Shown here one piece after another: positions 3,727 to 29,690 of a DNA stretch of 64,000 nt. Below the pieces are notes generated by a model, which had not been told where the DNA came from, made no database searches, and saw nothing but the letters and a program-made list of their open reading frames with translations. Made by a program: the position numbers and the translations under genes. The stretch comes from an uncultured virus (IMG/VR IMGVR_UViG_3300023110_000008) (taxonomy: Duplodnaviria > Heunggongvirae > Uroviricota > Caudoviricetes). The number at the start of each line of letters is the position of its first letter. Position 1 is the first letter of the stretch. The stretch lies in the IMG/VR virus record IMGVR_UViG_3300023110_000008. The stretch is one strand, 5' to 3'.

Positions 3727-6700
3727 ATGTCAGAGAAAACGGATCTAAATATTACACCATATTACGATGATTACGATGCAGACAAGAAATTTCATAAAGT
3801 TCTGTATCGTGCTGGTCGACCAATTCAAGCGAGAGAGTTAACTCAAACTCAATCTATTCTACAAGATCAGGTAGAGAAATTTGGTGATCATTTCTTTAAA
3901 GAAGGTTCTATTGTTTCAGGTGCTCAGTCAAACATTGACATGGACATCTATTTTGTCAAAGTACAAAATTCAAATCCAAATGCAAACGGCGATCTAAACG
4001 TAGAATCTTATAGAACTAGTTTTCACGGCAAACTCATTCAAGGTTTAACAACAGGTGTAGTAGCAAAAGTTATTTCATCAACTGCTGAAACTGAAGATGA
4101 TTCTATAACACTATTTGTAAAAGCATTATCACAAGGTACAGACAGCGATGGTTCTTTTATATTCAAAGGTTCAGAAGAAATAAGAGAAGTAGAATTCTCA
4201 GCTGACGGTTTTGGATCAACTTCTGCTGTAGCAACAAACAACAACTACTTTAAAACATTATCACAATCATCAACACCAACTGGTCGTGCTTCAATTGCAG
4301 AAATTTCAGAAGGTGTAGTTTTTACAAGAGGTTTCTTTGTAAAGGTAGACAAACAACTTATCGTATTAGAAAAATATGCAGGTAATCCTTCATATAGAGT
4401 TGGTCTTTCTATCAATGAAACTATCATATCATCAACAGAAGATAATAGTCTCTTAGACAATGCACAAGGCTCATCAAACGATAATGCGCCTGGTGCCGAT
4501 AGATTAAAATTTGATCTTACATTATCTAAAGTAGCACTAACAGATACTACAAGTGTTAACTTCATTGAATTAGCAAGAGTTAACAATGGTATCATTGAAC
4601 TATCAATCAATAGACCAATCTATTCTGAAATAGAAAATACTATGGCACGAAGAACCTTTGATGCCAATGGCGATTTTGTTGTAAGACCATTTACTAGTAA
4701 TTTCAGAGAACATTTAAAAACTTCAGATAACAAAGGGTTTTATCCAATAGCAGAAGGCGGACAAGAAGAGAAGTTTATCATGCAGATATCTGCTGGTAAA
4801 GCTTATGTTAGAGGATACGAAATTGAAAAAGCAGGTACATCAAACCTAACAATTAATAAAGCAAGAACAACAGCAGAACTATCTAACGCATCAACACCAG
4901 TTAGAATAGGTAATAAATTAAAAATCAACAACATTTATGGAATGCCAGAAATTGGTGATTCAGCTTCAACAAATGCTTTCGAACCAATCAAACTTTACAG
5001 TCTACCTAAATCTTCTGCATCAGCATTAAGTGGTAGTGCAGAGAATATTGGTTTTGCAAGAGTTAGACATTTTGATGAGTCAGCTACAGATGAATATCAA
5101 TTATATCTATTTGATATTAAAATGTTTACTAAAGTTGGAGTTACAACAGCAACCTCAACATTATATGCTAACGGTGATAAACTAACAGACGATATTACAG
5201 GCGCAACAGGTATTGTTGCATATGTCGATAGTAATAACATTTATCTACATGATGTAGTAGGACAATTTGTATCAGGTAATAATGTATCAGTTAGAGGTAA
5301 GGGAACTGCATCAGCAGTAGCATCAACTAGTGTTCAGGTCTTTAATGTAAGTCAATCTCACTCAGTCGGTCAAGTTTCACCTGCTAGCGTAGGACTAGAC
5401 TTTAGTGCCGATGTAGTATTAGATGATATATCAGTAATATCTGGTTTAGGTACATTTAATGGCTCAACAAATGAATTACAAGGTGTTGGTTCACAGTTTA
5501 CTAAAGAAGTAAAAGTTGGTGATCATATCGTTGTTAATGGTACAGAACATAGAGTTTCAGTTGTTACTAACGATACATCGTTAAATGTAGTTACAACAGC
5601 TGGTGGTGCAGTGACACCTTCAGCGGCAACACAAGTAGCAGTTATCAGAAAAAGAGCAAAACTTGCAGACCAAGATCAGACATCAAATATATTTGCATGG
5701 CCTAGAGATTACGTTTCAGATGTAACACCAACAGGAACAGTAGAAGTCAGAAAACAAGGACTGTTCTCAATGTCAAATGGTACAATCACTTTGACAAAAG
5801 AGTCAGACGAAACATTCTCAGACTTTGGTGATGACAAATATCAATTTACTAAATTATCACTAAACGGAACTGGTGATGTCGTAGCATTAGGTGACGTGTT
5901 AGTCGCAGACGATGTAACTTTTGGTACACCAGGTACTTCATTAGATGTTACATTCAGTGATTCAGGATCAGGTGCTCAAATATTAGCAACTTATACTGTT
6001 AAGAGAACAGCACCTGCTGTAAAGTCAAAAGCTTTAGAAAAATTCAGATCAGTTTCATTTAGATCATCTAATAGTGATAAACCTTTCTATGGTCTTGCAT
6101 ACGATCACAAAGAATTGAATCTATGTGTACCAGATGTCTATAAAATACATGCAGTTTTAGAGGCAGTTCCAGGCACAACTTCAGGTTCAAATAGTCAGGC
6201 AACACCACCAAACGCAACTGTAACAATAAGTTCAGGTTCTTTTGCATTAAAAGAAGAGATTGTAGGTCAATCATCAACAGCAAGAGCATTATTGATCAAT
6301 TGGGGTGGTGATACAAACACATCATACTTTGTATACTTAAATGATATACCTTTCATTGACGGTGAGACAATTGTTGGCCAAACAAGTTCAGGTATCGCTG
6401 TACTATCAAACTTAAGTGCAGGTTCACCAAACATTAAGAACAACTATTTCTTAGACAATGGCCAAAGAGATGGTTATTATGACTTCTCAAAACTAGTTTT
6501 AAAACAAGGTAGATCAGCACCTAACAATCCTGTGACTGTTATCTTTGACATGTTTAGTAGAGGTGGTACAGGAGATTACTACTCAGTAAATTCTTATAAC
6601 AGTGCTGATGTTGAGTACAAAGATATACCAAATTACTCACCAAATAAAGTAGACTTAGGTGGTTTTGAACCAGACGGTAAGTTCGAATTATCAGATGCAG

Positions 6701-9700
6701 TAGACTTTAGACCATCAACAGACTTTTTACCTGGCACTAATTTCCAAGATGATGATACAAATGCTTATGATCAGAACGATCCATTAAACTTATCAGATAA
6801 TACAAAAGTAACAGCTGCACCATTTGTATACACATCAAGGGTGTTTAACGATGTCGACAATGGAACAATTTCATGTCCAATGCCTACATCTTCAGTGACA
6901 GCAGATATAGATTTCTATGTACCTAGAATTGATAAAGTATTCTTAACTAGAAATGGTAAGTTTGAAGTTTCTATTGGTTATCCTGATATTAGTCCTCAAA
7001 AACCAAATCAGTTAGATGATGCAATTGAAATGTTCGAATTGTTCATACCTGCTTACACATCAAACTTAAAAGAAATCAATTTAAAACAATTTGATCATCG
7101 TAGATATACGATGAAAGATATTGGTAGAATAAACCAAAGACTTACAAACATTGAAAGAATTACAGCACTATCTTTATTAGAAAAAGATACACAATCAAAA
7201 CAAATTTTAGATGCAGACGGATTTGACAGATATAAATCAGGCTTCTTAGTAGATAACTTTAGAGGTCATAAGATTGGTGATGTTTCACATCCAGACTATG
7301 AATGTGCTATCGATACAAAACTAGGTCAATTAAGACCTAAACACCATACTCAGTTCTTTGATATCATTGCTAACTCAGCATTGTCACGTAACTATAAGAA
7401 GTCTGGTGATATTATCACATTACCATATACAGAAAGATCATTTGTTAATCAAAATAAGGCATCTAGGTCATTAAATGTTAACCCATACGCTGTGTTTGCA
7501 TTTATTGGTCACGTTAAACTAAGTCCAGAGACAGACATCTGGCAAGACACAGAACAATTACCAGAAGTAAGAGTTAACAGAGAAGGCAACTTCGATGCAA
7601 TATTAGCAGAGAACGAAAACGCATTAGGCACTGTTTGGAACGCATGGCAGACTACATGGGTAGGTGAACCTACAGTTGTAGAGACAGAGACATTATCAAG
7701 TGTTCCAGCAGCTTGGAACGGTGATCCTTCACAAGGTGGTGAATATACACCTAATACTACTGTTACAAGAAATGTAACAGAAACACCTGAGTCTCAGATC
7801 AGAACAGGTGTTAGAACATCGGTTGTAGAAGAGTTAGTTGAAACACGTAACGATAGAATTGTTAGTGTCACAATTGTACCATTCTGTAGACCAAGAGACA
7901 TTGAAATAGATGCAGTTAACTTAAAACCAAACACAAACCATTACGTATTCTTTGATGGTATCGATGTAAACTCATATGTAAAACCATTCAGTACACTGTA
8001 CAGTAAAGATGGTGGTACATCATACGATCAAATAGTAAAAACAGATGGTAACGGTAGATTAAGAGCAACATTCAGTTTACCTAACGATAGATTCCAGAGA
8101 TTCCCAACTGGTGCTAGAGAAATGGTTATTACATCAAGTTCAAATAACCTTTCTAACCCAGCATCACGAGGTAATGCAATCTATCAAGCACAAGGTTTAT
8201 TACAAGCTTCACAAACTGAAATTGTATCAACAAGGAATGGTAGAGTAGTTATTGAAAGGCTATCTGCTGAGAGACAAATAGTAAGAAGAGGTGAGTTATT
8301 AAACGTAACACCTGGTACAGGTACACCACCTGAGCCAAGTCCAGAACCACCTGCAACTCCAGCACCTACACCTACACCAGAACCTACTGAGGCACCTATA
8401 CCGAGTCCAACACCGACTCCAGAGCCTACACCAAGTCCTACACCGACACCTACGCCGACGCCAGCGCCGACAACAACTCCTGCGCCTACACCGTCGCCTA
8501 CACCGACACCGACACCAACGCCGACACCAACAAGTACGCCGATACCGTCACCACCGCCTATTGATGACCCTAGAGATTTTTGGGACGTTGATCCTAGAAT
8601 TCCTAGAATATTCGATGAGAGAGAATTGCGTGAGACAGAGTGGGTCGATCCATTAGCAGAATCATTCTTAGTAGATATGGATGGTGGCATGATGTTGTCT
8701 TCAGTTGATCTATTCTTTAGAACTAAAGACGATGCACTACCAGTGTCAGTACAAGTTAGAAACATGGTGAATGGTTATCCAGGTCAGTTAGTATTACCAT
8801 TCTCAACAGTATCTAAGAATCCAAACGAAGTTAATATTTCAGAAGACGGTTCAAGTGCTACAACATTTACATTTGATTCGCCTGTATACCTAGAGAAAGG
8901 TAAAGAATACTGTTTCGTAGTTTTATCAAACTCAAACGAATACGAATGTTTCATATCCAGAATGGGCGAAAACGATTTAATTACTGGTGAAACAATTTCA
9001 GGACAACCATATGCTGGTTCATTGTTCTTATCACAAAACGCATCAACATGGACAGCAGAACAAACAGACGATCTCAAGTTCAATCTTAAGATTGCACAAT
9101 TCGATACCTCAAAAGTTGCAGAAGTTGTGTTTGAAAACGATTTTATCGGAGATGTAAAACTACAAGAGAATCCAGTTCAAACATTTGCTGGTCAAAGTTA
9201 TGTTAAGATATTAAACTACTCACACGGTATGTACGAAACAACTTCACACGTAACAATAGCAGGCGTGAAAGGCGATAAAGAAGATGGCGTAGTAGAGATT
9301 GGCACACCAAGTGCTATTAGTGCTGCCGTAACAGCACAGACATACGAGACTGGTGGAAGTAATGATGCTGTTGTAACAGGTGGTACAGGTACAGGTCTTA
9401 AAGTCAAAGTAGTTGTAGACGCTGGAGATTTAGATGCAGTAAACTCAATTAAGATTACTGATCCAGGTAGTGACTACGCAGTGAACGACACTATTACAGT
9501 CACAATCGACAGTCAAACATTTACAGTAAGTGTCACCAATGTTGAAAACACATTGGGTGGTATTCCAGTTGCAGCTATTAACGGTACACACGAGAGTCTA
9601 CAAGATTATAGTATAGACTCATTTAATGTTCTACCTAGAACATCTGTAATGTCATCTTATGACTTAGAAGGCGGCACAAGTTTTGTTGCAACTCAAAGTG

Positions 9701-10494
9701 TAGATGGCGGTGGTAGTCAAGTTAGAAGTACAAGAAACATCTATTATGATGCAATTCATACAATGATACCTTCTATAACATTTAATAATACTCAAATATT
9801 CTCAAGTATTAATAGAACAGGTATGGGTTCACCAGAAGATTCAAACTTAGATACTGAATATGTAAGAAGAACTGCAAATGACTTTATTAAATTAAACGAT
9901 AACGTTTACTTCAGTAGACCAAGTGTTGTTGCATCACCCCTCAACGAATTAGAGAGAATGGGTAACCAGAGATCATTTAGATTATTACTACAAATGAGAT
10001 CATCAAATCCAAACGTATCACCTTACATTGATACAGGTACAATTGGTTGTCTAGGTATTATGAACAGAATTAATGATATTGATTCTGCTGCCGATCTATC
10101 AGATGGTGAAGTTTACGTACCATCAACAGAACCAGATGGCGATAACAACGCAATGGTATACACAACAAGATTGGTAAGTTTAAAGAATCCTGCTACATCA
10201 TTGAAAGTTTTATCAGATAACTTTAGACCACCTAACTCAGACATTAAAGTTTTATACAAACTCATCAAAAACGATGAAGATACACCAGTAGATGATTTAG
10301 GATTTGAATTCTTTAACTCAACTGGTGGTCCTGACACAGCTATTGATCAAGACGCTAGAAACTTTAAAGAATACGAATACACAGCAGACAACTTACCTGA
10401 ATTTACAGGTTTTGTAATTAAGATTGTAGGACAGGCTACAAACACATCTCAAGTACCAATAATTTCTGGTCTTAGATGTATAGCATTAGCATGA
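3727..10494 (+). CDS. Large virion structural protein, VrlC-like (DUF4815-type)
   Basis: N-terminal [28 protein letters not shown], plus [36 protein letters not shown] and DPLAESF motifs seen in T4-like marine phage structural proteins. Confidence 0.8.
8314..8560 (+). repeat. Pro/Thr low-complexity linker inside the VrlC-like protein
   Basis: About 80 aa of [14 protein letters not shown]...; locally C-rich DNA. Confidence 0.9.
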
Positions 10495-12595: not shown

Positions 12596-14260
12596 ATGGC
12601 AGATAAAATTTACATTAAACACAATTTAAATGGCGGTAGTTTTCAGCAACCTTACATAGCAAGGCAACCTGCTAACATTCAAGAACCAAATATAAGACAA
12701 CAACCATCGATTGTTCCTTATACGTTTCAGTCTCCTTCGACTTATCAGAATCAACAACCAATAATTTATCGAAATCCTGTTAATAGGCAAAATCCTTTTA
12801 TAAGAAACGCACAGCAACCTAACATAAGATCGAGACAAAATCCTTTTATAAGAAACGCACAACAAACGTATACTTATCAGGCCGATGCACAATCACCTTA
12901 TATTGCTAATAGACAGAATCCGTATCCGTATCCTGCAAACGCACAAACACCGTTTACGTATCAACATCAAAGTCCTTCAACTTATAGAGACCCAAGAAAT
13001 GCACAGGTTATAGTTGCGTATCAACATCAATCACCTAGTACATATCGTGACCCAAGAAGTTACAGAAATCCTGTAAGTTATGCTTATAGATCACCTAGTA
13101 CATATCGTGACCCAAGAAGTTACAGAAATCCTGTAACATATCAGGCACAACAACCTACTACGTATCAACACCAGTCACCAGCAAATATAAACGCACAGGA
13201 GTCAAATCAACAACCTGTACCTTATAGAGTGCCTTCAACTTATCAAGCACAACAAAGAAGTCCTCAAACATATAGGGTGCCATCGATTTATCAAAATCCG
13301 TTTACGTATCAGGCGCAAAGACCATCGCCTTACATTTATCAATCGCCTTCGACTTATTCAGCACAAGGCCAAACGCCTTACATATATCAGTCACCATCGA
13401 CTGCTCAGGTACCAACATCATATGAAGGTATTGTAGGCGAATCAGCACTGTCTGGAAGTTCAACAGCAACAAGTGCAACTTTAGCTAATCAACCGAACCC
13501 TCAACCTTGGGGCTCAGGTATAAGTAATCCTGTTTGGGATGTATATCCTTTTGGTGGTAGTACGAATTATATAAATTCTGACCCACCTTCAGGAACTGCT
13601 TCTATGTTTAGTGTACCAAGTTGGAATACTCTTCAATTAGCAACTGGTAATCCTGGTTTTAATCATACCGAATGTGGTTGTTATATGCAATTTGATTTTG
13701 CAGCTAACAATAATACTGTTCAGACAAATCCTTTAGGGGCTTTTAGAATATCGTATGGTCATTATAACTCTTTTAGTAATAGTGGTTGGAGTTTTTATTA
13801 TAGATTTTATATGCCTATTACCGATTTGAATGCTAATGGTATAATTGACGATACTTGGAATTTTGATGTAGCATATTATGCAAGTGGTGAATCGGTATCA
13901 GGTACTCAAGCTCAAACAAATTGTTACGGAGGAGGTGGAAACAGTTATGGATTTTATCCACATGTTTGTGGAAAAACCAGAGGCCAATATTATAATTTCT
14001 GGTCTGGTTCAACTTCAAGGGGTGGATTTAATGGTACTCGCACTGCTAGATTTTTTAAGTGGGGTGTATACGACAGCACAGGTAATCCAGTACAATTAAC
14101 ATCAAATGATGTTTATTTTGGAATAAAAGCAACAAAAGGCACAGACACTTATTATACATATTTTCATATAGCTTCATACTTCAACGGTTCTTGGTCATCA
14201 AGCCCCATAAGTTTAAGAGCAGCATATAATGCAGGTAGTGGGGGGCCAATAATAGTATAA
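12596..14260 (+). CDS. Pro-repeat ribbon protein C with C-terminal globular (putative receptor-binding) domain
   Basis: Residues ~19-273 are Pro-delimited 6/8/10-mer words (PSTYRD, PFTYQHQS, PFIRNAQQ). Residues ~275-554 are a non-repetitive aromatic-rich domain. Confidence 0.75.
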   Translation: MADKIYIKHNLNGGSFQQPYIARQPANIQEPNIRQQPSIVPYTFQSPSTYQNQQPIIYRNPVNRQNPFIRNAQQPNIRSRQNPFIRNAQQTYTYQADAQSPYIANRQNPYPYPANAQTPFTYQHQSPSTYRDPRNAQVIVAYQHQSPSTYRDPRSYRNPVSYAYRSPSTYRDPRSYRNPVTYQAQQPTTYQHQSPANINAQESNQQPVPYRVPSTYQAQQRSPQTYRVPSIYQNPFTYQAQRPSPYIYQSPSTYSAQGQTPYIYQSPSTAQVPTSYEGIVGESALSGSSTATSATLANQPNPQPWGSGISNPVWDVYPFGGSTNYINSDPPSGTASMFSVPSWNTLQLATGNPGFNHTECGCYMQFDFAANNNTVQTNPLGAFRISYGHYNSFSNSGWSFYYRFYMPITDLNANGIIDDTWNFDVAYYASGESVSGTQAQTNCYGGGGNSYGFYPHVCGKTRGQYYNFWSGSTSRGGFNGTRTARFFKWGVYDSTGNPVQLTSNDVYFGIKATKGTDTYYTYFHIASYFNGSWSSSPISLRAAYNAGSGGPIIV

Positions 14261-14261
14261 A

Positions 14262-15191
14262 ATGCCAACCGTACAAGTAACATATAGCAATTCAAACGCA
14301 ACGCCAGGACAACAGCCGTATCCTTATATTGCTAATAGACAAAATTCTACTAACGGTACTACGCCTGTGCCGTACATTGCTAATGCCCGTGCATCAGCAA
14401 ACGCTCAGACAGTTGCTAATACTAGAGTGCCTATTCCTTACATAGCAAACGCACAGACAGCTGCTATCGCAAGAAGTCCATTTCAATCACCATACATTGC
14501 ACAACAACAGAATCCGTTTATTAGAAATAGACCATCACCTTATGTTGCAAATCAACGTCAACCAGCAGCTTATCAACATCCTGTTAACAGACAGAATCCG
14601 ATAATTGGTAGCTATCGTATATCAGCTAATTACAGACATCCTGTAAATAAACAGAATCCGTTTATAAGAAATAAACCTTCACCTACAACTTACAGACATC
14701 CTGTTGATAGACAGAATCCATTTATTAGAGATGCAAGACAGCCTTCAACATATCAGGCAACAGGGCGAACACCAACAACATATCAACATAGGCAACCTAT
14801 AACATATCCTACAACAGGTAGAACACCATTTACGTATCAACATAGATCACCATCGTTCTATCAACATAGAATACCATTTACGTATCAACATAGATCGCCA
14901 GATACATATAGGGTTTCTGCTTCTCAACCTTCACCATATATTGCAAATGCTCAGAATACAAGAAGTGGTAACATTGTTGTACAAACTACATATCAACATA
15001 GATCACCATTTACATATCAGATAACATATTCTAGCAGAAGACCTATAGGTCCTGTAGCAGAAGTTAAACAAGTTTATGTTAAAGATGCAGACGGTACTGT
15101 AAAACAATTAGAAGAAGCATACGTAAAAACTGATCCAACTACAGTAGAAAAAATACATACAAAAGTCCCATATTCCCAATTAAATAATTAG
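14262..15191 (+). CDS. Pro-repeat ribbon protein D (mirror partner of C)
   Basis: Same word vocabulary in reversed order. C-terminal VYVKD...AYVKT module. Confidence 0.75.
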   Translation: MPTVQVTYSNSNATPGQQPYPYIANRQNSTNGTTPVPYIANARASANAQTVANTRVPIPYIANAQTAAIARSPFQSPYIAQQQNPFIRNRPSPYVANQRQPAAYQHPVNRQNPIIGSYRISANYRHPVNKQNPFIRNKPSPTTYRHPVDRQNPFIRDARQPSTYQATGRTPTTYQHRQPITYPTTGRTPFTYQHRSPSFYQHRIPFTYQHRSPDTYRVSASQPSPYIANAQNTRSGNIVVQTTYQHRSPFTYQITYSSRRPIGPVAEVKQVYVKDADGTVKQLEEAYVKTDPTTVEKIHTKVPYSQLNN

Positions 15192-19710: not shown

Positions 19711-19971
19711 ATGGCAACACAAAATAATTTTGTTATAGAATACGGATTAAACATCGGTTCTACAGAGGTCATAACTAGTGCTGGTAAAATTACCGCTGGA
19801 TCAGTATCCGCACTAGACTCAGATGACATCACAGAAGGTGCAACGAATCAATATTTTACTAACGCAAAAGCAAGAGGTGCTATTTCATTAGCATCTGGAG
19901 AAACGAATTTATCTTATAACTCATCAACGGGTGAGTTTTCATTACCGCAAGTTGACGGAGGTACTATCTAA
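19711..19971 (+). CDS. Small fibre-associated protein ending in VDGGTI
   Basis: DDITEGATNQYFTNAKAR repeat. N-terminus paralogous to the next gene. Confidence 0.65.
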   Translation: MATQNNFVIEYGLNIGSTEVITSAGKITAGSVSALDSDDITEGATNQYFTNAKARGAISLASGETNLSYNSSTGEFSLPQVDGGTI

Positions 19972-22268
19972 TGGCAGGGGAAAAGAATTTTAATATTAAA
20001 AACGGCCTGTCAATCGGTGGAACAGAGGTTATTAGCTCTTCTGGATCATACGTTGGTTCAATTTCAGCATCAGCATTAGATGAGTCAGTAGACGATAGAG
20101 TCGCTCAACTTTTAACAGCAGGTACAGGCATCACATTAACATACGATGATGCTGCTAACACACTAACAATCGCAGGTGCAGCCCAATACGGCGACTCAGA
20201 TGTATTATCATACTTAGGTGGTGGTACATTTGCAGGTAACATCATACCAAGCGCAGATAACACATACGACTTAGGTTCATCAAGTAGAACATGGAAAGAC
20301 GTATACGTTGGACCTGGTTCTTTATATGTTAACGGACAACAGGTTATTTCAGATGACTCAGGTACAATCGTCTTTAGTGCTGACTCTAACCAAAACATGT
20401 CTATACAGACAAGTGGTTCTGGTGATTTAGAGTTAGATGCAACAGGATCAGGTGTTATTGCACTTAAAGGTCCAGTTCAAATCGAAGACGGTAACAATAT
20501 TACCAACAGTGCAGGAAACAACATCACATTTAGTAACAATATTGCAGTTGATCAAATCGTGTCCAGATCAGCTGATACTAACTTAGTATTGAGTGGTAAC
20601 GGAAATGGTGTTATTTCACTTAACGATGATGTTACAATCTCAGGTTCACTAACAGTTTCAGGTACAACAACAACTGTAAACTCAGAGACAATTAACCTTG
20701 CAGACAACACAATCGCATTAAACAGTAACTTTACTTCAGGTTCACCAACAGAAGATGCTGGTTTGAGTGTAACTAGAGGTAGTTCAACTGCAAAAACATT
20801 CTTATGGGATGAGACCAACGATAAATGGACAGTCGGTTCAGAAACTTTTGTTGCAGGAACATTCGAAGGAAACTTAACTGGTAACGTAACTGGTACAGTT
20901 ACTAGTATTGCTAACCATGACACTGGTGATTTAGCAGAAGGTTCAAACTTATATTTCACTGACGCTAGAGCAGATGCTAGAATCACAGCAGCTCTTATCG
21001 ATGAAGATAATATGGTGTCTAATAGTGAAACAAGAATACCTTCTCAACAATCAGTTAAAGCATATGTAGATTCACAAGTCGCAAGTAAAGACAATACAGA
21101 TGAAATAACAGAAGGCTCTACAAACTTATACTTTACAAATGCAAGAGCAGACGCTAGAGTTCAAAATGCAATCGATACAGATGTTAATTTTGGTAGTGCT
21201 TCAGATACTTTAGTACCTTCTCAGTTAGCAGTCAAAACTTATGTTGATGCACAAGTAGATACAGCAGATGCATTAAGTGAACTAAGTGGTGATTCAGATG
21301 ACATTACAGAAGGTTCAACAAACTTATTCTATACAGATGCTAGAGCAAGAGCATCTCTAAGTACAAACTCTGGTGCAGGTGCATATGATTCAAGTACAGG
21401 TGCTATTACAATACCTTCAACAACTGCTCATATTTCAGAAGGTTCAAACCTTTACTTTACAAACGCTAGAGCAGATGCTAGAGTTAATGCATTATTACCA
21501 GATACAGATTCGTTAACAGAAGGTTCATCAAACTTATACTTCACAGACGAAAGAGTTGATGACAGAGTAAATGCTTTAGTAACAGCAGGTACAGGCATCA
21601 CATCAACATACGATGATGTAAATGGTACCTTAACACTTGCAACAACAATTACACAATATGCTGATTCAGATGCAAGAGGTTCAATCTCTGTTACTGATTC
21701 AGGTGGTGATGGAAGTTTAGCATACAATTCATCTACTGGTGTAATCACATATACTGGCCCAAGCGCTTCAGAAGTTAGAAGTCATATTAGTGCAGGAACT
21801 GGTGTCTCAATTAGTTCAGGTGAAATAAGTATTGGTCAGGCAGTTGCTACAACAAGTAACGTACAATTTGGTAACTTAACATTATCTGGTAACCTAACAG
21901 TTAATGGTACTACATCAACTGTAGATTCTACAAATACAACAATCAGTGATGCATTGATTGAATTAGGGTCTGGTAACACAGGTGCTAACTCAAATGACCT
22001 TGGTCTTGTGTTAGAAAGAGGTTCAACTGGCGACAACGCATTTATGGGTTGGGACGAAAGTGCTGATGAGTTTGTAGTTGCTACAACAACTGCAACTGGT
22101 GCTTCTACAGGTTCGTTAACATTAACAGACGCAAACTTTAGAGCATCACAAATTTCAACATCATACGCTTCAAATAGTGGTGGTGTTGCGAGAAACATAT
22201 ATCAATCAACTTCTGCACCTACTTCAGGTGACGGAGCAGTTGGTGATCTATGGATTCTTTATTCATAA
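19971..22268 (+). CDS. Long tail fibre-like protein (fibre 2)
   Basis: Multiple TDxxxEGSxNLYFTxARA repeats. C-terminus is APTSGDGAVGDLWILYS. Confidence 0.75.
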   Translation: MAGEKNFNIKNGLSIGGTEVISSSGSYVGSISASALDESVDDRVAQLLTAGTGITLTYDDAANTLTIAGAAQYGDSDVLSYLGGGTFAGNIIPSADNTYDLGSSSRTWKDVYVGPGSLYVNGQQVISDDSGTIVFSADSNQNMSIQTSGSGDLELDATGSGVIALKGPVQIEDGNNITNSAGNNITFSNNIAVDQIVSRSADTNLVLSGNGNGVISLNDDVTISGSLTVSGTTTTVNSETINLADNTIALNSNFTSGSPTEDAGLSVTRGSSTAKTFLWDETNDKWTVGSETFVAGTFEGNLTGNVTGTVTSIANHDTGDLAEGSNLYFTDARADARITAALIDEDNMVSNSETRIPSQQSVKAYVDSQVASKDNTDEITEGSTNLYFTNARADARVQNAIDTDVNFGSASDTLVPSQLAVKTYVDAQVDTADALSELSGDSDDITEGSTNLFYTDARARASLSTNSGAGAYDSSTGAITIPSTTAHISEGSNLYFTNARADARVNALLPDTDSLTEGSSNLYFTDERVDDRVNALVTAGTGITSTYDDVNGTLTLATTITQYADSDARGSISVTDSGGDGSLAYNSSTGVITYTGPSASEVRSHISAGTGVSISSGEISIGQAVATTSNVQFGNLTLSGNLTVNGTTSTVDSTNTTISDALIELGSGNTGANSNDLGLVLERGSTGDNAFMGWDESADEFVVATTTATGASTGSLTLTDANFRASQISTSYASNSGGVARNIYQSTSAPTSGDGAVGDLWILYS

Positions 22269-22301: not shown

Positions 22302-24077
22302 ATGGCGACAGGCTCACAGAAAGTAAAAACCCCCTCAGGTTGGAATTCAACCCAAGGTGCATGGGTTAAAACTGCTTCAAACACTTGGAAAGATGTAGAT
22401 CAAATTTACATTAAAACTCCTAGTGGGTGGAATAACGCATCAGGTCAACAACCTACACAACAACCATATCCTTATATTGCTAATAGACAGAATCCATTTA
22501 TAAGAGATGCACAACAGCCGTATCCTTATATTGCTAATAGACAGAATCCATTTATAAGAGATGCACAACAACCGTATCCTTATATTGCGAATGCTCAATC
22601 GCCTTATATTGCGAATGCACAAAACTCTGTATCATATAGACATCCTGTTAATGCACAGAATCCGTTTATAAGAAATAGACAAACACCAGCATTCTATAGA
22701 CATCCAGTAAATGCACAGAATCCGTTTATCAGAAACGCACAACAACCTGCTTCTTATCAACATCCTGTTAATGCACAGAATCCGTTTATCAGAAACGCAC
22801 AAACACCAGCTGGGTATAATCACCCTGTAAGTGCTCAGACTCCGTTTATAAGAAATAGACAAACACCAGCATCTTATCAACATCCAGTTGCTGCTCAAGA
22901 GCCTAATATTAGAAGCGGTCAAGAACCAAATATTAGGTCTGCACAAGAACCAAATATCAGAAACGCACAAACACCGTTTACGTATCAACATAGGTCACCA
23001 TTTACATATAGAGACCCAAGATCATATAGGGTGCCATTTACGTATCAACATAGATCACCATTTACATACCGTGATCCAAGATCATATCAGATACCGTTTA
23101 CGTATGCGTACAGATCACCATTTACATACCGTGATCCAAGATCATATAGGGTGCCATTTACGTATCAACATAGATCACCGTATACGTATAACCACAGATC
23201 ACCGTTTACATATAACCACAGATCACCGTTTACGTATAACCATAGATCGCCGTTTACGTATCAGGCAAGACAACCTAATAACGCAAGGACTCCATTTACA
23301 TTCCGTGCGCCGTTTACGTATCAGGCAAGACAACCTAATAACGCAAGGACTCCATTTACATTCCGTGCGCCGTTTACGTATCAGGCAAGACAACCAGTTG
23401 CTGCTAGACAACCTAATAACGCAAGGCAACCAAACAACGCAAGGCAACCAAATAACGCAAGGCAACCAAGTACTACACAACAAACAGCAAGATATCCATT
23501 TATCTTCCCAGCAGTGTACTTCTATCAACCGTTTGGTCCAATACCTGGTAACATTCCTGGAGGTGGCAAAGGATGTTTTGTTGCCGGCACAATGATATGG
23601 TTGGGCGATGGCAGTCATGTACCAATTGAAACAGTAGAAGTTGGTCAAGACGTAATGACTTGGAACGAAGAGACAAATAAATTAGAGATCGGTGTAGTCG
23701 AAGAGTTGATGCAACCAAGAGAAGTATCAATACATGAGATACATTTATCAGACGGTAGAATACTTGAAACAACTTCAGAACATCCATTTAGAACAATGAA
23801 TGGTGAATGGGGTGTTATCAACTTAGAGAAATTTAAAGAATTCCACAAAGAAGAAGGTGGAGATGAATTTGTAAATTCAGAAATCGCAGTCGGTGATCAT
23901 TTGATGACCATGACAGATGCTGTACTAGGTACAGAAATAGGACTAGAAATAATTAAAATAGAGGAGAAAGATTCACAACAGGTGTATAACTTGAAGAACG
24001 TTGGCGACAATCACAATTTCTTTGCAAATGGTGTATTAGCTCACAACTTCTTCTTCTTTAAACCATCACCTAAGTAA
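22302..24077 (+). CDS. Pro-repeat ribbon protein A with C-terminal Hint domain
   Basis: N-terminal VKTPSGW module, residues 55-389 Pro-delimited repeats, residues 425-582 Hint domain (CFVAGT...TSEHPF...VYNL...HNFFANGVLAHN). Confidence 0.85.
   Translation: MATGSQKVKTPSGWNSTQGAWVKTASNTWKDVDQIYIKTPSGWNNASGQQPTQQPYPYIANRQNPFIRDAQQPYPYIANRQNPFIRDAQQPYPYIANAQSPYIANAQNSVSYRHPVNAQNPFIRNRQTPAFYRHPVNAQNPFIRNAQQPASYQHPVNAQNPFIRNAQTPAGYNHPVSAQTPFIRNRQTPASYQHPVAAQEPNIRSGQEPNIRSAQEPNIRNAQTPFTYQHRSPFTYRDPRSYRVPFTYQHRSPFTYRDPRSYQIPFTYAYRSPFTYRDPRSYRVPFTYQHRSPYTYNHRSPFTYNHRSPFTYNHRSPFTYQARQPNNARTPFTFRAPFTYQARQPNNARTPFTFRAPFTYQARQPVAARQPNNARQPNNARQPNNARQPSTTQQTARYPFIFPAVYFYQPFGPIPGNIPGGGKGCFVAGTMIWLGDGSHVPIETVEVGQDVMTWNEETNKLEIGVVEELMQPREVSIHEIHLSDGRILETTSEHPFRTMNGEWGVINLEKFKEFHKEEGGDEFVNSEIAVGDHLMTMTDAVLGTEIGLEIIKIEEKDSQQVYNLKNVGDNHNFFANGVLAHNFFFFKPSPK
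23574..24047 (+). other. Hint (intein-like/BIL) auto-processing domain, no endonuclease
   Basis: Cys1 (tgt at 23574), block-B TxxH (TSEH), terminal His-Asn. The +1 residue is Phe. Confidence 0.9.
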
Positions 24078-24088
24078 TCTAAAGTAAA

Positions 24089-25219
24089 ATGGCAACAGGT
24101 TTTTATCCAGCAAATGCTCAAGGTATTACACAGGCTTCTGTTCCTGTGCAGACACCTTTTACTTTCCAGAATCCATTTACATTCCAGAATCCATTTACAT
24201 TCCAGAATCCATTTACATATCAGTCACCTTATATTGCAAATGCTAGACAACCTAATAACGCAAGGCAACCGTTTACTTTCCAGTCGCCTTATATTGCAAA
24301 TGCTCAACAACCTAATAACGCAAGGCAACCGTTTACTTTCCAGTCGCCTTATATTGCGAATGGTCAACAACCTAATATTAGATCAGCACAAGAACCTAAT
24401 ATTAGAAGCGGTCAAGAACCTAATATCAGATCAGCACAAGAACCTAATATTAGAAATGCTAGACAACCAGCAGCATATAGAGCACCTGTATCAGCACAAC
24501 AACCAGTAATTGGTAATGCTAGACAACCAGCAGGTTATAGACACCCTGTATCAGCACAAGAACCTAATATTAGATCAGCACAACAACCAGCAGGTTACAG
24601 ACACCCTGTATCAGCACAAGAACCTAATATTAGAGGCGCTAGACAACCTTCGACTTATCAACATAGATCACCGTTTACGTATCAACATAGGTCACCGTTT
24701 ACATATAACCATAGATCGCCATTTACATACCGTGATCCTAGATCATATCGTGTACCTAGCACATATCAACATAGATCGCCGTCTACATATCAAGACCCAA
24801 GATCATATCGTGTACCTAGCACATATCAACACAGATCACCATCTACATATCGTGATCCAAGAAGTTATAGAGTACCTAGCACGTATAACCATAGATCACC
24901 AAGTACTTACAGAGATCCTAGAGCATATCGTGTACCTAGCACATATCAACACAGATCACCAAGTACTTACAGAGATCCTAGAATAACACAATCGCCAAGT
25001 ACATATCAACATAGGCAACCTGTGACATATGCAAGACAAGGTCAAACTCCGTTTACCTATCAACATAGATCACCAAGTACATATTCTAGACAAGGTAGAA
25101 CTCCGTTTACCTATCAACATAGATCACCAAGTACTTACGCTACACAAGGTAGAACACCAGTGAATCGTTGGGACGGTGTATTGTCACAACAGTGGCCAGC
25201 ATCTCCAATTACGTCATAA
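24089..25219 (+). CDS. Pro-repeat ribbon protein B (mirror partner of A)
   Basis: Nearly all repeats; proline spacing is the exact reverse of protein A. Confidence 0.85.
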   Translation: MATGFYPANAQGITQASVPVQTPFTFQNPFTFQNPFTFQNPFTYQSPYIANARQPNNARQPFTFQSPYIANAQQPNNARQPFTFQSPYIANGQQPNIRSAQEPNIRSGQEPNIRSAQEPNIRNARQPAAYRAPVSAQQPVIGNARQPAGYRHPVSAQEPNIRSAQQPAGYRHPVSAQEPNIRGARQPSTYQHRSPFTYQHRSPFTYNHRSPFTYRDPRSYRVPSTYQHRSPSTYQDPRSYRVPSTYQHRSPSTYRDPRSYRVPSTYNHRSPSTYRDPRAYRVPSTYQHRSPSTYRDPRITQSPSTYQHRQPVTYARQGQTPFTYQHRSPSTYSRQGRTPFTYQHRSPSTYATQGRTPVNRWDGVLSQQWPASPITS

Positions 25220-25248: not shown

Positions 25249-26853
25249 ATGAGAAAATTAGAAACCTTAGAAGCCGTACAAGAAGCATTTCAAAATAGAA
25301 GATCACCATTTGGGCCAGATAGTGGCGATGAAGTCATTTTCATGGATCATTGTCATATTGGTAGTATCGAACTATCCAAAGACTACAAGGAAACTGAAGC
25401 ATATAAGTCTTTAGATTGGTTGATGAAGAATAAATTACCAAAACTAAAGCATGTTAAATGGAAAGAAGCTTCTAAATTGATAGACGAAAGATTATACGAT
25501 TATTCTGATACAACAAAATTACAACCGTTTAATCAATTACAACATCAAGCATATGTCTATCAATATTATTTGCAGTACGGTTATACTGAAAAACCTGAAA
25601 CACCAATACCTGGTCATTCTGGCTTTGATTTCAAAAACCGAAATGATGAATATCAAAAGATAACAGACTATACAAAATATGTTTTTGGTGCAGAAGGCCC
25701 AACTGAAAGACAATTAGAAATCAATAATTCAACTTATTATCACAGTGCTAAAGCACACTGGTTAATTGATAGTATCAAACATGAAGGCCTTTGGAATCCA
25801 ATCCAAGGTGTAGTGAACAAACCTTCTTCAGAAGAAGAACGATACACTCTTAGAATACATCCAGGTTCTGTAAGATCAGCAGTATTTGAAATGATAGATG
25901 ATCCAGATATGGAAATGTTTGTATGGGATAAGTTTGATTTATTTGATTCAGAAGTTCTATCAGCTGAACAAGTAATTGAATTATGGAAAGCCTTTGTTGA
26001 AAAGAAAGATAAACCAACACATCTTTCATTTACATATACAGAGGGTTTTATAGAAATGCATAGTGCTTTTGCTGATATCGGTTTTAGAAGTACAGTTACA
26101 GACTTCAATAAAAACATTATGAAAATGGCAAAAGGCAAACCTATATCAATCTATGTGGGTTACGATAGTCGTCATGGTGATCTTGCTGAAACAAATGTTA
26201 AGTTGCTTCAAAAAGGAATTGAATATGGTTTTGGTAAAGGTGACATGTATGAATTTATAAAAGACTGGCAACCTAATATTAAGATACTAGATGTATCAAA
26301 GATACCTGAATACACTAGAGAGTATGCTAATCAATCAACAGAGTTTACATATAGTAGATTCTTAATACCTTACCTAGAAAATTATGAAGGTTTCAGTATC
26401 TTCTTAGATGATGACATATTGTTTAGTAAGTCTATACTACCACTATTCTATTTCTTAGACCCAAAAGATGCTATTGCTTGTGTACAATACGATTTCGAAA
26501 ATCATAGTGATACTAAATTTGATGGCGAAAAGAATGTTTCTTATCCTAAGAAATTGTGGTCTAGTCTTATGGTATTCAATAATGCACACGAAGACTGTAA
26601 GAAGTTAACACCAGAAGTAGTGAATACAGAGTCAGGAAAGTATTTACATCAATTTGAATGGACAGACAAGATCAGTAGAATACCACCTAGACATATTATA
26701 ACTGAAGGATATGAAACACATTTAGACAAACCACATGCTTTAGCAATTCACTGGACACGTGGTGGCCCATGGATAAAAGACATGGATACCAGTGATATAA
26801 ATATGTTAGACGTATATGAAAGAGCGTATGCGAGAGCGAATAAAGTCTCTTGA
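25249..26853 (+). CDS. Two-domain protein: ParB/Srx-like N-terminal domain fused to a GT-A glycosyltransferase
   Basis: C-terminal QSTEFTYSRFLIPYL..YEG.SIFLDDD, YPKKLWSSLMVFN, YLHQFEW and IHWTRGGPW motifs. N-terminal LIDSIKHEGLWNPIQG...IHPGSVR. Confidence 0.7.
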   Translation: MRKLETLEAVQEAFQNRRSPFGPDSGDEVIFMDHCHIGSIELSKDYKETEAYKSLDWLMKNKLPKLKHVKWKEASKLIDERLYDYSDTTKLQPFNQLQHQAYVYQYYLQYGYTEKPETPIPGHSGFDFKNRNDEYQKITDYTKYVFGAEGPTERQLEINNSTYYHSAKAHWLIDSIKHEGLWNPIQGVVNKPSSEEERYTLRIHPGSVRSAVFEMIDDPDMEMFVWDKFDLFDSEVLSAEQVIELWKAFVEKKDKPTHLSFTYTEGFIEMHSAFADIGFRSTVTDFNKNIMKMAKGKPISIYVGYDSRHGDLAETNVKLLQKGIEYGFGKGDMYEFIKDWQPNIKILDVSKIPEYTREYANQSTEFTYSRFLIPYLENYEGFSIFLDDDILFSKSILPLFYFLDPKDAIACVQYDFENHSDTKFDGEKNVSYPKKLWSSLMVFNNAHEDCKKLTPEVVNTESGKYLHQFEWTDKISRIPPRHIITEGYETHLDKPHALAIHWTRGGPWIKDMDTSDINMLDVYERAYARANKVS

Positions 26854-26878
26854 AATTTAACACACACAAGTGTATAAT
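26850..26878 (+). promoter_or_regulatory. Sigma70-like promoter TTGAAA-N17-TATAAT
   Basis: Near-consensus hexamers with a 17-nt spacer. Confidence 0.5.
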
Positions 26879-26887
26879 GAGGTAATT

Positions 26888-27439
26888 ATGAATATGTTAA
26901 TTTATGATGAAAACAGTAATCTAATCATTAGAAAACCAAATGGATTAGAATACTCTTTCGAAAACACAGATAGACCAAATCTTGGTTTTGAATATGATGT
27001 ATTGGTGTACGATGACATCGAAGTTAAAATTGAGAAATGGGAAGAAGATAAATGTTTTAACGATCAGGTCAAAATAAATCTAAACTCAGATGAAATAGAT
27101 GCTATCGAAGAATATATCAATCAGTCTGAACCACCTGCTGGTGTTTCATTAAACAATCAGTATGCAAACAAACTATCTGATATGGCTCAAAACTATATCG
27201 ATGATCAAGTACAAGCATATGGTTTCCGTGATTTACTAGAAGTAACTATAGCAGGAAGAGAGGGCTCAAATCACCCTTTAAGATCAGATGCAAGAAGAGT
27301 TATGGAATATTCAGACGTTATATGGAATGTATACGTTAATGTATGTAATGAAATAGGCGAAACAAGAGAAGACACACTACAAGACTTTGAGTATTATTCA
27401 AATAATTTTCCATCACCTCAAAAGTCATTAATAGCATAA
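26888..27439 (+). CDS. Putative tail fibre assembly/chaperone-like protein
   Basis: ATG preceded by GAGG. C-terminal QNYIDDQVQAYGF...RSDARRVMEYSDVIW resembles helical fibre-assembly proteins. Confidence 0.45.
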   Translation: MNMLIYDENSNLIIRKPNGLEYSFENTDRPNLGFEYDVLVYDDIEVKIEKWEEDKCFNDQVKINLNSDEIDAIEEYINQSEPPAGVSLNNQYANKLSDMAQNYIDDQVQAYGFRDLLEVTIAGREGSNHPLRSDARRVMEYSDVIWNVYVNVCNEIGETREDTLQDFEYYSNNFPSPQKSLIA

Positions 27440-27440
27440 A

Positions 27441-28178
27441 ATGAGCCTGCTTGTAGAAAAGGTTGATTCTCCTTTTCATATTCAATCATTACCTTTAGAT
27501 AAAGTCTACATAATTGATAATTACTTAGAGACTTCTATATGGCATTGGATTAATCAAAGATTTACAAGCAGTAATATTTGGTCTAAAACAAATCAAGTGG
27601 GTAGCGAAAGCCCAACAGGATTACCTCACCATAGTTTTTGGGGTGCAAGTTTCTTCAAGGCTGATCGGGACAATAAAGATTTCGGATTTCACAATGTTGA
27701 AGGAGATATTGATAAGAAAGATTCTTATCCTGCTCACTATCTAAATAGAAGAATATGTACAGATTTCGGTTTCAAATGGAAAAGATTTCAGTACATGGGT
27801 TTAAACTCACAGACAATGGGTTGTCATGGAACAACTCATGCAGATTGTGATACTAATGATTCATGGAATTTATCTTTCTTATACTATTACAATACATATT
27901 GGAATCCCGAATGGGGTGGCACATTAAGATTATATGATGAACCTCAACAGGGTTTAGAAGGTAGAAACGAACATATTAAAAACCACCAAATCGCTGAAGT
28001 GGAGTTTGTACCAAATAGATTAGTAATGTTTGACGGCAGAATACCACACGGTGCAGATGCACCAAATGAAACTGCTAGATACATGGATAGAAGATCAATT
28101 GTTTTAAGAGGCGATGAAGTAGAGATAGGAGTTAGCGAAGAGTTTTATAATGCCAACGATAGACTTTATTACATATAA
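27441..28178 (+). CDS. 2OG-Fe(II) oxygenase (prolyl-hydroxylase-like)
   Basis: HxD (THADC), WNPEWGG, PNRLVMFDGRIPH and distal Arg (RRSIV). Confidence 0.8.
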   Translation: MSLLVEKVDSPFHIQSLPLDKVYIIDNYLETSIWHWINQRFTSSNIWSKTNQVGSESPTGLPHHSFWGASFFKADRDNKDFGFHNVEGDIDKKDSYPAHYLNRRICTDFGFKWKRFQYMGLNSQTMGCHGTTHADCDTNDSWNLSFLYYYNTYWNPEWGGTLRLYDEPQQGLEGRNEHIKNHQIAEVEFVPNRLVMFDGRIPHGADAPNETARYMDRRSIVLRGDEVEIGVSEEFYNANDRLYYI

Positions 28179-28998
28179 CGAGAAGACTCTCAGAGACTTT
28201 AAACCAGTTCTTGCAAAGAAATGGCATCCAGATTGGTGGAAAAGAATTAAAGTAAATGCAGTAGTACGTGGTGTTAATACTCAAACTATCAGAGCATGTC
28301 CTGCTATGGATGATTGGTTAAAGAGTGGTTGGTACCTACTTGCAAACAGAGACATGGAAGTTATCGTAGGTAACAATGCAAAAGACGGTGTAAGTACAAC
28401 AGACGTTAGAACTTTCGATCCTTCAGGAGAACATTACGCTTCACCTACACACCCCAAAGAACAATTTGAAAATGCTTTCGATTATTTTGGCGATGATGGT
28501 CCTGTCAAAGATGCATTTAAAATGAGAAACCCATGGAACATTATAACACCAGAGGGTTATTCATGTCTTTACTTAGACCCTTTCTTATTTCAAAATAGAT
28601 ACTTTGCTACATGGCAAGGAATTATCGATACAGATAAGTTCAATGTGAGCCAAGATAATTCACAAATAATTTTTTATCCTAGAGTTAATCATTCATTTAC
28701 TATAAAAAAAGGCACACCATTGTGTCAGGTTATTCCTTTTAAAAGAGAAGAATGGAATTCTACGTATACATTACGTAGTCCTAGAGAATTTCAGGACAAC
28801 AGAAGTTCAGTAACTTCACATGCAGAAATGATGTCTATGGATGAACAAGGTAGAAGAGAATACTCCGATGAATCAAGACTAAGGGGAACTAAACTTGGGC
28901 CATATAGAAACGAAGGTTATTGGCAAGAAAAAGGTAAATACTTCAAAGAAGATGAACCACCACCTGAATGTCCTTTTCATAATGAGGTAGAAGAATGA
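28150..28998 (+). CDS. Conserved phage protein (DUF6065-like beta fold), typically next to oxygenases
   Basis: TIRACPAMDD..SGW, TPEGYSCLY..PF, GIIDTD and IKKGTPLCQVIPFKRE motifs. Confidence 0.6.
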   Translation: MPTIDFITYNEKTLRDFKPVLAKKWHPDWWKRIKVNAVVRGVNTQTIRACPAMDDWLKSGWYLLANRDMEVIVGNNAKDGVSTTDVRTFDPSGEHYASPTHPKEQFENAFDYFGDDGPVKDAFKMRNPWNIITPEGYSCLYLDPFLFQNRYFATWQGIIDTDKFNVSQDNSQIIFYPRVNHSFTIKKGTPLCQVIPFKREEWNSTYTLRSPREFQDNRSSVTSHAEMMSMDEQGRREYSDESRLRGTKLGPYRNEGYWQEKGKYFKEDEPPPECPFHNEVEE

Positions 28999-29690
28999 GT
29001 GTAAAATTATTATTTCCTGCATTTGTTTTTCATAGAGATTTTTTAGGCAAAGATGCAGATAAAGAACCTACATTGATGAATGCAGAATACTTTGATCTCT
29101 TAAAAAGAGAGATTGATGGTATGCGAAAGAAAGATCCTGTTGGTCGAAAGATATCAAATGCATATACAGGTTGGCAATCAAATGATGGTTGCGATCAACA
29201 TCCAACTTTTATTAAATGTATAAGATCAATTAAACGTTTAGTCAGAGACGAGTTATTACCTTTCATGGGATTAAACAAAGATGCACACCGTGTTGATATG
29301 CATAACTCATGGGCTAACATTAATGACAATGGTGCATGGAACAGACCTCACTTACACAATGGTTGTTTCTATTCAGGTGTATTTTATATACATGCTGATG
29401 GTGACGAAGGCGATTTAACTTTCATAGATACAAATCATAAAGTTGCAGGAGCATTTCCTGGCAACAATAGAATGATTGAATCTTATCAGATACAACCTAA
29501 GACAGGTCACTTATACATTTTTCCTAGTGGGTTAATGCATATGGTCGAACCCAATCTAACAAACAAAGATCGATACAGTATATCTTTTAATTTAGATGTC
29601 AATTGCATGGATGATAAAAATTCACGAATTGGTTGGAATGATTCAAATTTTGAGTATGATATAGACGAAAGCGGCAACTTGATCCTATAA
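28995..29690 (+). CDS. Putative 2OG-Fe(II) oxygenase, TIGR02466-like
   Basis: GWQS, SWANIN, NRPHLH, YSGVFY, IFPSGLMHMVEPN and RYSISFN motifs. Confidence 0.8.
   Translation: MSVKLLFPAFVFHRDFLGKDADKEPTLMNAEYFDLLKREIDGMRKKDPVGRKISNAYTGWQSNDGCDQHPTFIKCIRSIKRLVRDELLPFMGLNKDAHRVDMHNSWANINDNGAWNRPHLHNGCFYSGVFYIHADGDEGDLTFIDTNHKVAGAFPGNNRMIESYQIQPKTGHLYIFPSGLMHMVEPNLTNKDRYSISFNLDVNCMDDKNSRIGWNDSNFEYDIDESGNLIL

Follow-up and report, generated by a model that had tools for sequence, protein, structure and literature searches.

Two adjacent genes of an uncultured marine phage, here called A and B, encode proteins whose prolines are arranged as mirror images of each other. The genes lie within a 64,000-nucleotide stretch (the window) of the IMG/VR record IMGVR_UViG_3300023110_000008, which comprises 105,279 bases and is estimated to be 58% complete. 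The match is antiparallel and is kept at the level of the proteins, and we conclude that A and B probably run next to each other in opposite directions and in register, so that together they form the shaft of a fiber. The two genes and their parts are organized as follows.

Gene A, 22302..24077, + strand: open reading frame (ORF) of 591 amino acids, comprising an N-terminal cap, proline-periodic repeats, a Gly-rich linker, an intein-like domain and a short tail
A residues 1–54, 22302..22463, + strand: conserved N-terminal domain with two KTPxGWN motifs and many invariant columns (33 sequences)
A residues 55–389, 22464..23468, + strand: units of 6, 8 and 10 residues punctuated by proline; one strand of the proposed duplex
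A residues 390–424, 23469..23573, + strand: aromatic and Gly-rich linker that ends in GGGKG directly before the catalytic Cys; poly-Gly at this place in relatives
A residues 425–582, 23574..24047, + strand: predicted Hint or bacterial-intein-like (BIL) domain from Cys-425 to His-Asn-582; putative self-processing
A residues 583–591, 24048..24074, + strand: nine-residue tail FFFFKPSPK after His-Asn, with Phe, a non-nucleophile, as the +1 residue
Gene B, 24089..25219, + strand: ORF of 376 amino acids that starts 11 nucleotides past the A stop codon
B residues 23–357, 24155..25159, + strand: proline-punctuated units, reversed in order and opposite in type relative to A
B residues 358–376, 25160..25216, + strand: C-terminal tail RWDG...WP..P..., in which R, W, D, W, P and P are invariant (33 sequences)

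The proline pattern of B mirrors that of A

An earlier note on this DNA had described the two genes as exact mirror-image proline barcodes, and a recount reproduced their coordinates and the pattern. Between residues 23 and 357 of B, 47 of the 48 prolines have a proline of A at position 412 − j; the sole unmatched one, B303, faces Ser-109 of A. All proline spacings in this part of B are 6, 8 or 10 residues and hence even, as had been stated. The corresponding region of A (residues 55–389) contains 50 prolines, three of which (57, 75 and 93) are unmatched, each being the second proline of a PxP motif. Throughout the family, an “8+2” unit in one chain is found opposite a “10” unit in the other.

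On the antidiagonal i+j=412 there are 47 matches, compared with 33 on the next best antidiagonal (432) and 29 at the best parallel offset. Shuffling the spacings of B (n = 5000) gave a mean of 22.9 matches and a maximum of 33, and shuffling whole blocks (n = 5000) gave a mean of 25.1 and a maximum of 36. None of the 10,000 shuffles reached 47, so that the single dominant peak anticipated by the earlier note stands out clearly over the controls. Scored against their own reversals, A reaches 31 and B 30.

The mirror has no counterpart in the DNA. Comparison of A with B by blastn yields 34 same-strand and no opposite-strand matches, and the only inverted repeat measures 14 nucleotides, which rules out a DNA-level origin by inverted duplication or reverse complementarity and agrees with the previous statement that the genes are not reverse complements. 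Where the DNA of A and B is similar (same strand, 68–88% identity), the segments encode units of like type at places that do not face each other. The mirror is therefore kept at the protein level; moreover, because the paired segments are non-homologous, neither shared ancestry nor an inverted duplication can have made it.

Relatives keep the mirror by paired length changes

A first scan, in which viral contigs were searched with B, yielded 261 relatives, and 73 loci were kept. A second scan with the short protein of the other proline-periodic pair in the window (see below) added further loci, resulting in a combined set of 57 distinct complete A/B-type pairs with B proteins of 206–562 amino acids. 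A-like and B-like ORFs adjoin in 67 of the 73 loci, and in the other six the match lies at a contig end. The proportion of B core prolines on one antidiagonal is at least 90% in 40 of the 57 pairs, 80–90% in 8 and below 80% in 9.

In 46 of the 57 pairs, the register follows k = lenB+36, where k is the sum i+j and lenB the length of B. The register is therefore anchored at the N terminus of A and the C terminus of B, and length changes are matched at mirrored sites. Indeed, when the barcodes are written out, units are gained or lost in both genes together, for example in L004 versus L008 and in L051 versus L058. The match is also specific to the cognate partner. On average, a fraction of 0.90 is matched in cognate pairs and of 0.50 in non-cognate pairs, and in 46 of 52 distinct barcode pairs the own A is unsurpassed by any other A. 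The prediction of the earlier note that indels in A of related phages are answered at the mirrored site in B is therefore borne out for the 40 pairs with at least 90% of prolines on one antidiagonal, but not for some others (among them L015, L017, L052 and L063), which show the uncompensated indels that the note had named as grounds for refutation.

The family is frequent in viral metagenomes from the sea, with 261 loci from a single scan. The A/B genes were not found in the two nearest cultured phages in a search with a positive control, and megablast of the A/B region against a phage collection gave no match. The only tblastn matches of A and B in the phage collection, weak repeat matches to Ruminococcus phage phiRM10 and Vibrio phage F23s1, were taken as compositional. 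No fused A-B protein occurs among the longer homologues, where five matches all come from another proline-periodic family with an intein-like domain, and none of 155 homologues is a self-palindromic single chain. Pieces identical to A/B in contigs from RNA libraries (X11 and X16) were rejected as a sign of transcription, because DNA can be present in such libraries.

Facing units are complementary

Apart from their lengths, the facing units are related by type. In 808 of 818 eight-residue unit pairs from the 57 A/B pairs, exactly one chain carries an aromatic residue at P+3, whereas with shuffled partners (n = 1000) opposite-type pairs averaged 463 and never exceeded 512. Six-residue unit pairs are of opposite type in 460 of 536 cases, and 61 more are palindromic PxxYxxP units in which Tyr faces Tyr. 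In ten-residue unit pairs, an aromatic residue is present in both chains (178 of 179). The commonest facing pairs are P.P, Q.T, A.Y, I.R, N.S, F.Q, H.R, G.Y and E.F, each about equally frequent in both directions, and Arg is found opposite Arg 16 times, compared with 183 expected.

The facing units also covary. For 328 distinct eight-residue unit pairs, the mutual information peaks at i+j=6 (mean 0.41 bits) and i+j=8 (0.33 bits), whereas shuffled pairings give 0.08 and 0.06 bits on the same antidiagonals. The strongest covariation is that of Y-unit position 1 with N-unit position 5 (1.09 bits), and overall the N-terminal half of one unit is coupled with the C-terminal half of its partner.

Composition and conserved ends of the repeat regions

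Both repeat regions (A55–389 and B23–357) are devoid of Lys, Cys, Trp, Leu and Met. Residues 55–389 of A contain 41 Arg and only 8 Asp and Glu, and residues 23–357 of B contain 42 Arg and 10 Asp and Glu. Lys accounts for 110 of 36,856 residues (0.3%) over the 57 pairs. Neither region contains a GxyGxyG motif or a PP dipeptide, and a collagen-like or polyproline fiber was rejected on these grounds. HxH motifs are likewise missing from A55–389 and from B23–357. B has no match in Pfam or among the PHROG families, and the matches of A are confined to its intein-like part.

The first ∼50 residues of A and the last ∼20 residues of B are highly conserved, and the opposite end is variable. Because k = lenB+36 sets the last residue of B opposite residue 36 of A, the N-terminal domain of A is placed beside the C-terminal tail of B.

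Proposed fiber shaft

According to our proposal, A and B would be the two chains of one shaft, with ∼335 residues of each in register. The conserved N-terminal domain of A would lie beside the C-terminal tail of B, and the Gly-rich C-terminal end of A beside the N terminus of B. The register would be written in two layers. One would be a length barcode of 6-, 8- and 10-residue units bounded by prolines; the other would be the placement of a P+3-aromatic unit (PxTYxHRS-like) opposite a small-residue unit (PNIRSAQE-like). On a wider reading of the pair, taken up below, fibers of very different length would arise when the gain or loss of a unit in one gene is answered by that of the complementary unit at the mirrored site of its partner gene. 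We further infer that the chains adopt a β-type conformation and are part of the virion. An AlphaFold2 model of B alone lends the proposal weak support, as it shows no fold (mean predicted local distance difference test (pLDDT) score of 38 and predicted template modeling (pTM) score of 0.14, from a 33-sequence alignment).

In the forms that carry the intein-like domain, a thioester at the poly-Gly end of A might be resolved by an amine, by which the open end of the duplex would become covalently tied. BIL2, the closest fold match of the domain (see below), is known to react in this way and makes isopeptide bonds. More broadly, the pair could be described as a protein “duplex” in a nucleic acid-like sense, with partner and register written in the sequence, a two-layer code, length evolution by paired units and possibly a covalent tie made by the BIL domain; we regard this wider description as evenly balanced between holding and failing.

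Several observations weigh against the shaft or blur its details. Nine of the 57 pairs are matched below 80%, as given above. Five poorly matched pairs (L015, L017, L052, L063 and L046) were compared closely with near-identical contigs, using L026, L021 and L058 as compensated near-identical reference pairs for the first four. L015, L052, L017 and L063 differ from the compensated contigs by a whole-unit indel in one gene only (44, 88, 44 and 18 amino acids, respectively), and in L046 A is truncated. L141, L149 and L157 are also counted among the uncompensated variants. It is plausible that the one-gene indels are tandem repeats collapsed in short-read assemblies, because Logan short-read contigs of the A/B region are broken up across the repeats; they may, on the other hand, be real and transient uncompensated variants. 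The facing register is ambiguous as well, the overall mutual information being 1.66 bits at a shift of −2 and 1.43 bits at 0, and part of the antidiagonal covariation in these sequences could stem from the context of neighboring units rather than from contact. Both chains carry a net charge of about +7 per 100 residues. B has no solved relative (no match by phmmer against all PDB chains at E values up to 1), and there is no isolate among the homologues, whose 379 protein clusters are all metagenomic. Physical contact between A and B is something that we infer from the patterns described.

What the earlier note had pictured as A and B zipping together in antiparallel fashion is thus upheld as an antiparallel match at the protein level, to which compensated indels, cognate specificity, opposite unit types and covariation all attest. 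Its exact placement of proline opposite proline is not equally firm, with a register of either 0 or a shift by 2.

Alternative arrangements of A and B

The shaft can be drawn in different ways. In the form given by the earlier note, it is a strict 1:1 two-stranded β-ribbon, ∼110 nm long, that stands alone and would be unlike the trimeric fibers of phages. This form suits the exclusively even spacings and the covariation, which is found only on even antidiagonals, both of which fit the two-residue periodicity of β-strands. However, such a ribbon would have both faces exposed, and no comparable long isolated two-stranded ribbon was found in the literature searched. Furthermore, the strong positive charge of both chains means that their repulsion would need to be outweighed in an isolated duplex, which argues against a bare two-chain ribbon in isolation. 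We consider this form unlikely. No less plausible is a trimer of A:B pairs. In this specific form of the shaft, three A and three B chains would make up a six-stranded antiparallel needle, in which A takes the place of the outgoing and B that of the returning segment of the T4 gp37 needle. Phage fibers of solved structure are trimers, the T4 long tail fiber being described as such in PMC6957217, and the gene upstream of A is fiber-like.

The gp37 needle (D10–D11, PDB code 2XGF) is the closest structural likeness to such an assembly. As described in PMC6957217, one chain of the homotrimer runs in both directions, D10 comprises residues 811–881 and 1010–1026, the core is held by His-bound iron ions, and a Gly in a β-strand is set opposite a core Phe from a different subunit (G921 and F970), similar to the Y.A and G.Y pairs of A and B. 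The needle is, and the A/B shaft would be, a thin fiber element with outgoing and returning segments side by side and a small residue facing an aromatic one. In contrast to gp37, two gene products are involved here, HxH iron-site motifs are missing from both repeat regions, and sequence similarity is lacking, as no match to any solved chain was found. The paired region of A and B is also several times longer than the needle and combines a proline length barcode with a two-type complement code. Taken together, the trimer of pairs is a tentative form of the shaft, for which somewhat less than an even chance can be claimed.

Two other explanations do without a duplex. A and B might never touch, but bind a third periodic component in opposite orientations or merely match in length as if set by a shared ruler. 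The cationic chains might lie on an anionic partner; however, a ruler covers the lengths of the units and leaves aside the opposite-type rule (808 of 818), the avoidance of Arg opposite Arg and the interchain covariation. In addition, the genome record encodes no third repeat protein with the same barcode, since only A, B and the two proteins of the second pair (C and D) match B. We regard this explanation as very unlikely. Even less credible, to the point of being nearly dismissible, are separate homo-oligomeric fibers of A and of B, with a mirror that arose incidentally when repeats were shuffled or converted between the two genes. The 68–88% DNA identity of like-type units on the same strand makes sequence exchange plausible, but same-strand exchange would lead to a parallel order, and the best parallel offset scores 29 versus 47 for the mirror. 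Moreover, the units that face each other are unlike in type and non-homologous, and indels are matched at mirrored sites in 40–48 of the 57 pairs. The antiparallel shaft formed by both proteins is therefore the reading that we prefer.

An intein-like domain at the C terminus of A

The C termini of A homologues are of three types. They consist of poly-Gly followed by an intein-like domain and a short tail, of a short “...YYFxGGGG...EP” end with no further domain, or of an unrelated domain of ∼140 amino acids. The intein-like domain is hence optional and missing from many homologues.

In A of the window, residues 425–582 match Hint and intein families of Pfam below threshold (PF14890 with 33.3 bits at a cut-off of 35.8; other Hint families also remain below theirs). 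An AlphaFold2 model of the domain has a pLDDT of 86.3 and a pTM of 0.84, and a Foldseek search of the PDB with this model returned 64 matches at E ≤ 0.001. The best ones are BIL2 (6tmm/6y75; E = 2e-11, target template modeling score 0.81–0.86), followed by DnaB inteins, a BIL domain of C. thermocellum and Hedgehog. On the strength of this model, residues 425–582 are assigned a Hint fold of the BIL type. The alignment of 12 intein-like domains agrees with such an assignment: the G|C1 junction is invariant in 12 of 12 sequences, His-82 of block B is invariant and Thr-79 nearly so, and the terminal His-169 and Asn-170 are invariant (alignment numbering). The +1 residue is Phe, Tyr, Gly or Leu in all 12 sequences and never Cys, Ser or Thr. 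Because this residue is non-nucleophilic, the domain is BIL-like, and a canonical splicing intein was rejected.

The domain presumably removes itself and leaves a poly-Gly end on A. In BIL2, from the Tetrahymena BUBL1 locus (PDB codes 6TMM and 6Y75), the N-extein, a ubiquitin-like domain, is reported to be linked to a lysine by an isopeptide bond (PMC8616854, section 2.4). The A domain shares with BIL2 the conserved Cys-1, the block-B His and the terminal His-Asn; cleavage by it is presumed, and ligation is a possibility only. The tail after His-Asn has a Lys among its last three residues in 12 of 12 A proteins, in contrast to a shaft that is nearly free of Lys, which is perhaps a coincidence.

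In the marine run X10, in-frame insertions of 3 and 6 nucleotides occur at 23560–23570, in the Gly-rich linker before the catalytic Cys, and the linker length therefore varies in nature. A further group of proteins (P0156–P0160; 661–695 amino acids, N terminus MSDDIFIK...) begins with a proline-periodic part, continues with a middle domain and an acidic stretch, and ends in an intein-like domain (CCVHE...). Proline-periodic repeat proteins are thus capped by intein-like domains more than once. C-terminal self-cleaving intramolecular chaperone domains are known from phage fibers and spikes. They too are located at the C terminus and are removed autocatalytically after assembly, as the A domain would be, but differ from the Hint domain in fold and chemistry.

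A second mirrored pair in the window

The window contains another pair of proline-periodic proteins.

Long protein of the second pair (C), 12596–14260, + strand: 554 amino acids, proline-periodic
Short protein of the second pair (D), 14262–15191, + strand: 309 amino acids, proline-periodic

This pair is mirrored less cleanly than A and B. Its best antidiagonal (280) gives 23 matches and the next best 15, and for nine relatives the best and next best scores are 21/16, 21/15, 14/10 (three times), 16/14, 22/20, 23/14 and 23/17. The register of this pair type lies near lenD-30. The long protein ends in a globular domain of ∼270 amino acids that was found only in four identical copies, a distribution expected of a hypervariable tip. 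A search of the ESM Atlas with this domain yielded scores of only 0.82, which is within noise.

Another adjacent pair type with mirrored prolines (27 versus 17) was seen in L151 and L153. Its ORFs encode 217 and 269 amino acids, with the N terminus MATGFFQQPNSG and a partner that ends in GDGTKNVGAL.

Genome context

By its annotated genes, the 64-kb window represents the structural module of a T4-like myovirus. Baseplate wedge and fiber-like genes are followed by neck, terminase, sheath, tube and portal genes and then by scaffold and major capsid protein genes. A and B are located downstream of the baseplate and fiber-like genes and upstream of the neck genes, a position in the tail and fiber part of the module that speaks for the proposed shaft. 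The capsid protein is most similar to those of Methylophilales phage Melnitz (66.1%) and Pelagibacter phage HTVC008M (64.6%), both of which are filed under Kyanoviridae.

The gene 5′ of A (19971–22268) is fiber-like (phrog_697 and a minor tail protein family), and the gene 3′ of B encodes a GT8-like protein. The order fiber-like gene, A, B is kept in 42 of 42 representative loci as far as their flanks reach. Farther upstream (3727–10494, + strand), a structural protein of 2255 amino acids (phrog_358/877) contains a long run of PxPx repeats, with prolines two residues apart.

B is followed (25249–29690, + strand) by genes for the GT8-like protein, two 2-oxoglutarate (2OG)-Fe(II) oxygenases (one of them PF13640) and two unknown ORFs, an order shared by 42 of 42 related loci wherever the flanks extend far enough. 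No solved relatives of the GT8-like and 2OG oxygenase proteins were found. A role of these enzymes in hydroxylating or glycosylating the prolines of A and B was considered and is unsupported, because HTVC008M, which is without A and B, carries four 2OG oxygenases in the corresponding position ahead of gp13.

Relation to known systems and implications

Long antiparallel pairing is known from other proteins. In the coiled-coil arms of SMC/Rad50-type proteins, long segments pair and their interruptions match at mirrored places. These arms are built from α-helical heptads of one chain, whereas A and B are two chains with a proline every 6–10 residues, which excludes long helices. In the stalk of streptococcal antigen I/II, two unlike repeat regions of one chain pair antiparallel, with an Ala-rich helix wrapped by a polyproline-II helix. 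A and B differ from it in that they lack PP dipeptides and are encoded by separate genes. In the literature searched, no description of such a mirrored two-protein pair or of its pairing code was found. The mirror, kept in dozens of relatives, points to a two-protein antiparallel fiber that rests on this code.

A and B illustrate clearly how two genes undergo compensatory evolution, here by whole repeat units. If the proposed shaft is correct, it would represent a natural, heteromeric and sequence-addressed route to a long and thin protein rod. Such a route would interest structural biologists and protein designers, since the order of units could be used to program both register and partner. 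It would also show how phages tune the length of a fiber, as B ranges from 206 to 562 amino acids while the two genes stay matched. The family is absent from the cultured phages searched and thereby points to a side of host recognition that has gone unstudied in abundant uncultured T4-like phages.

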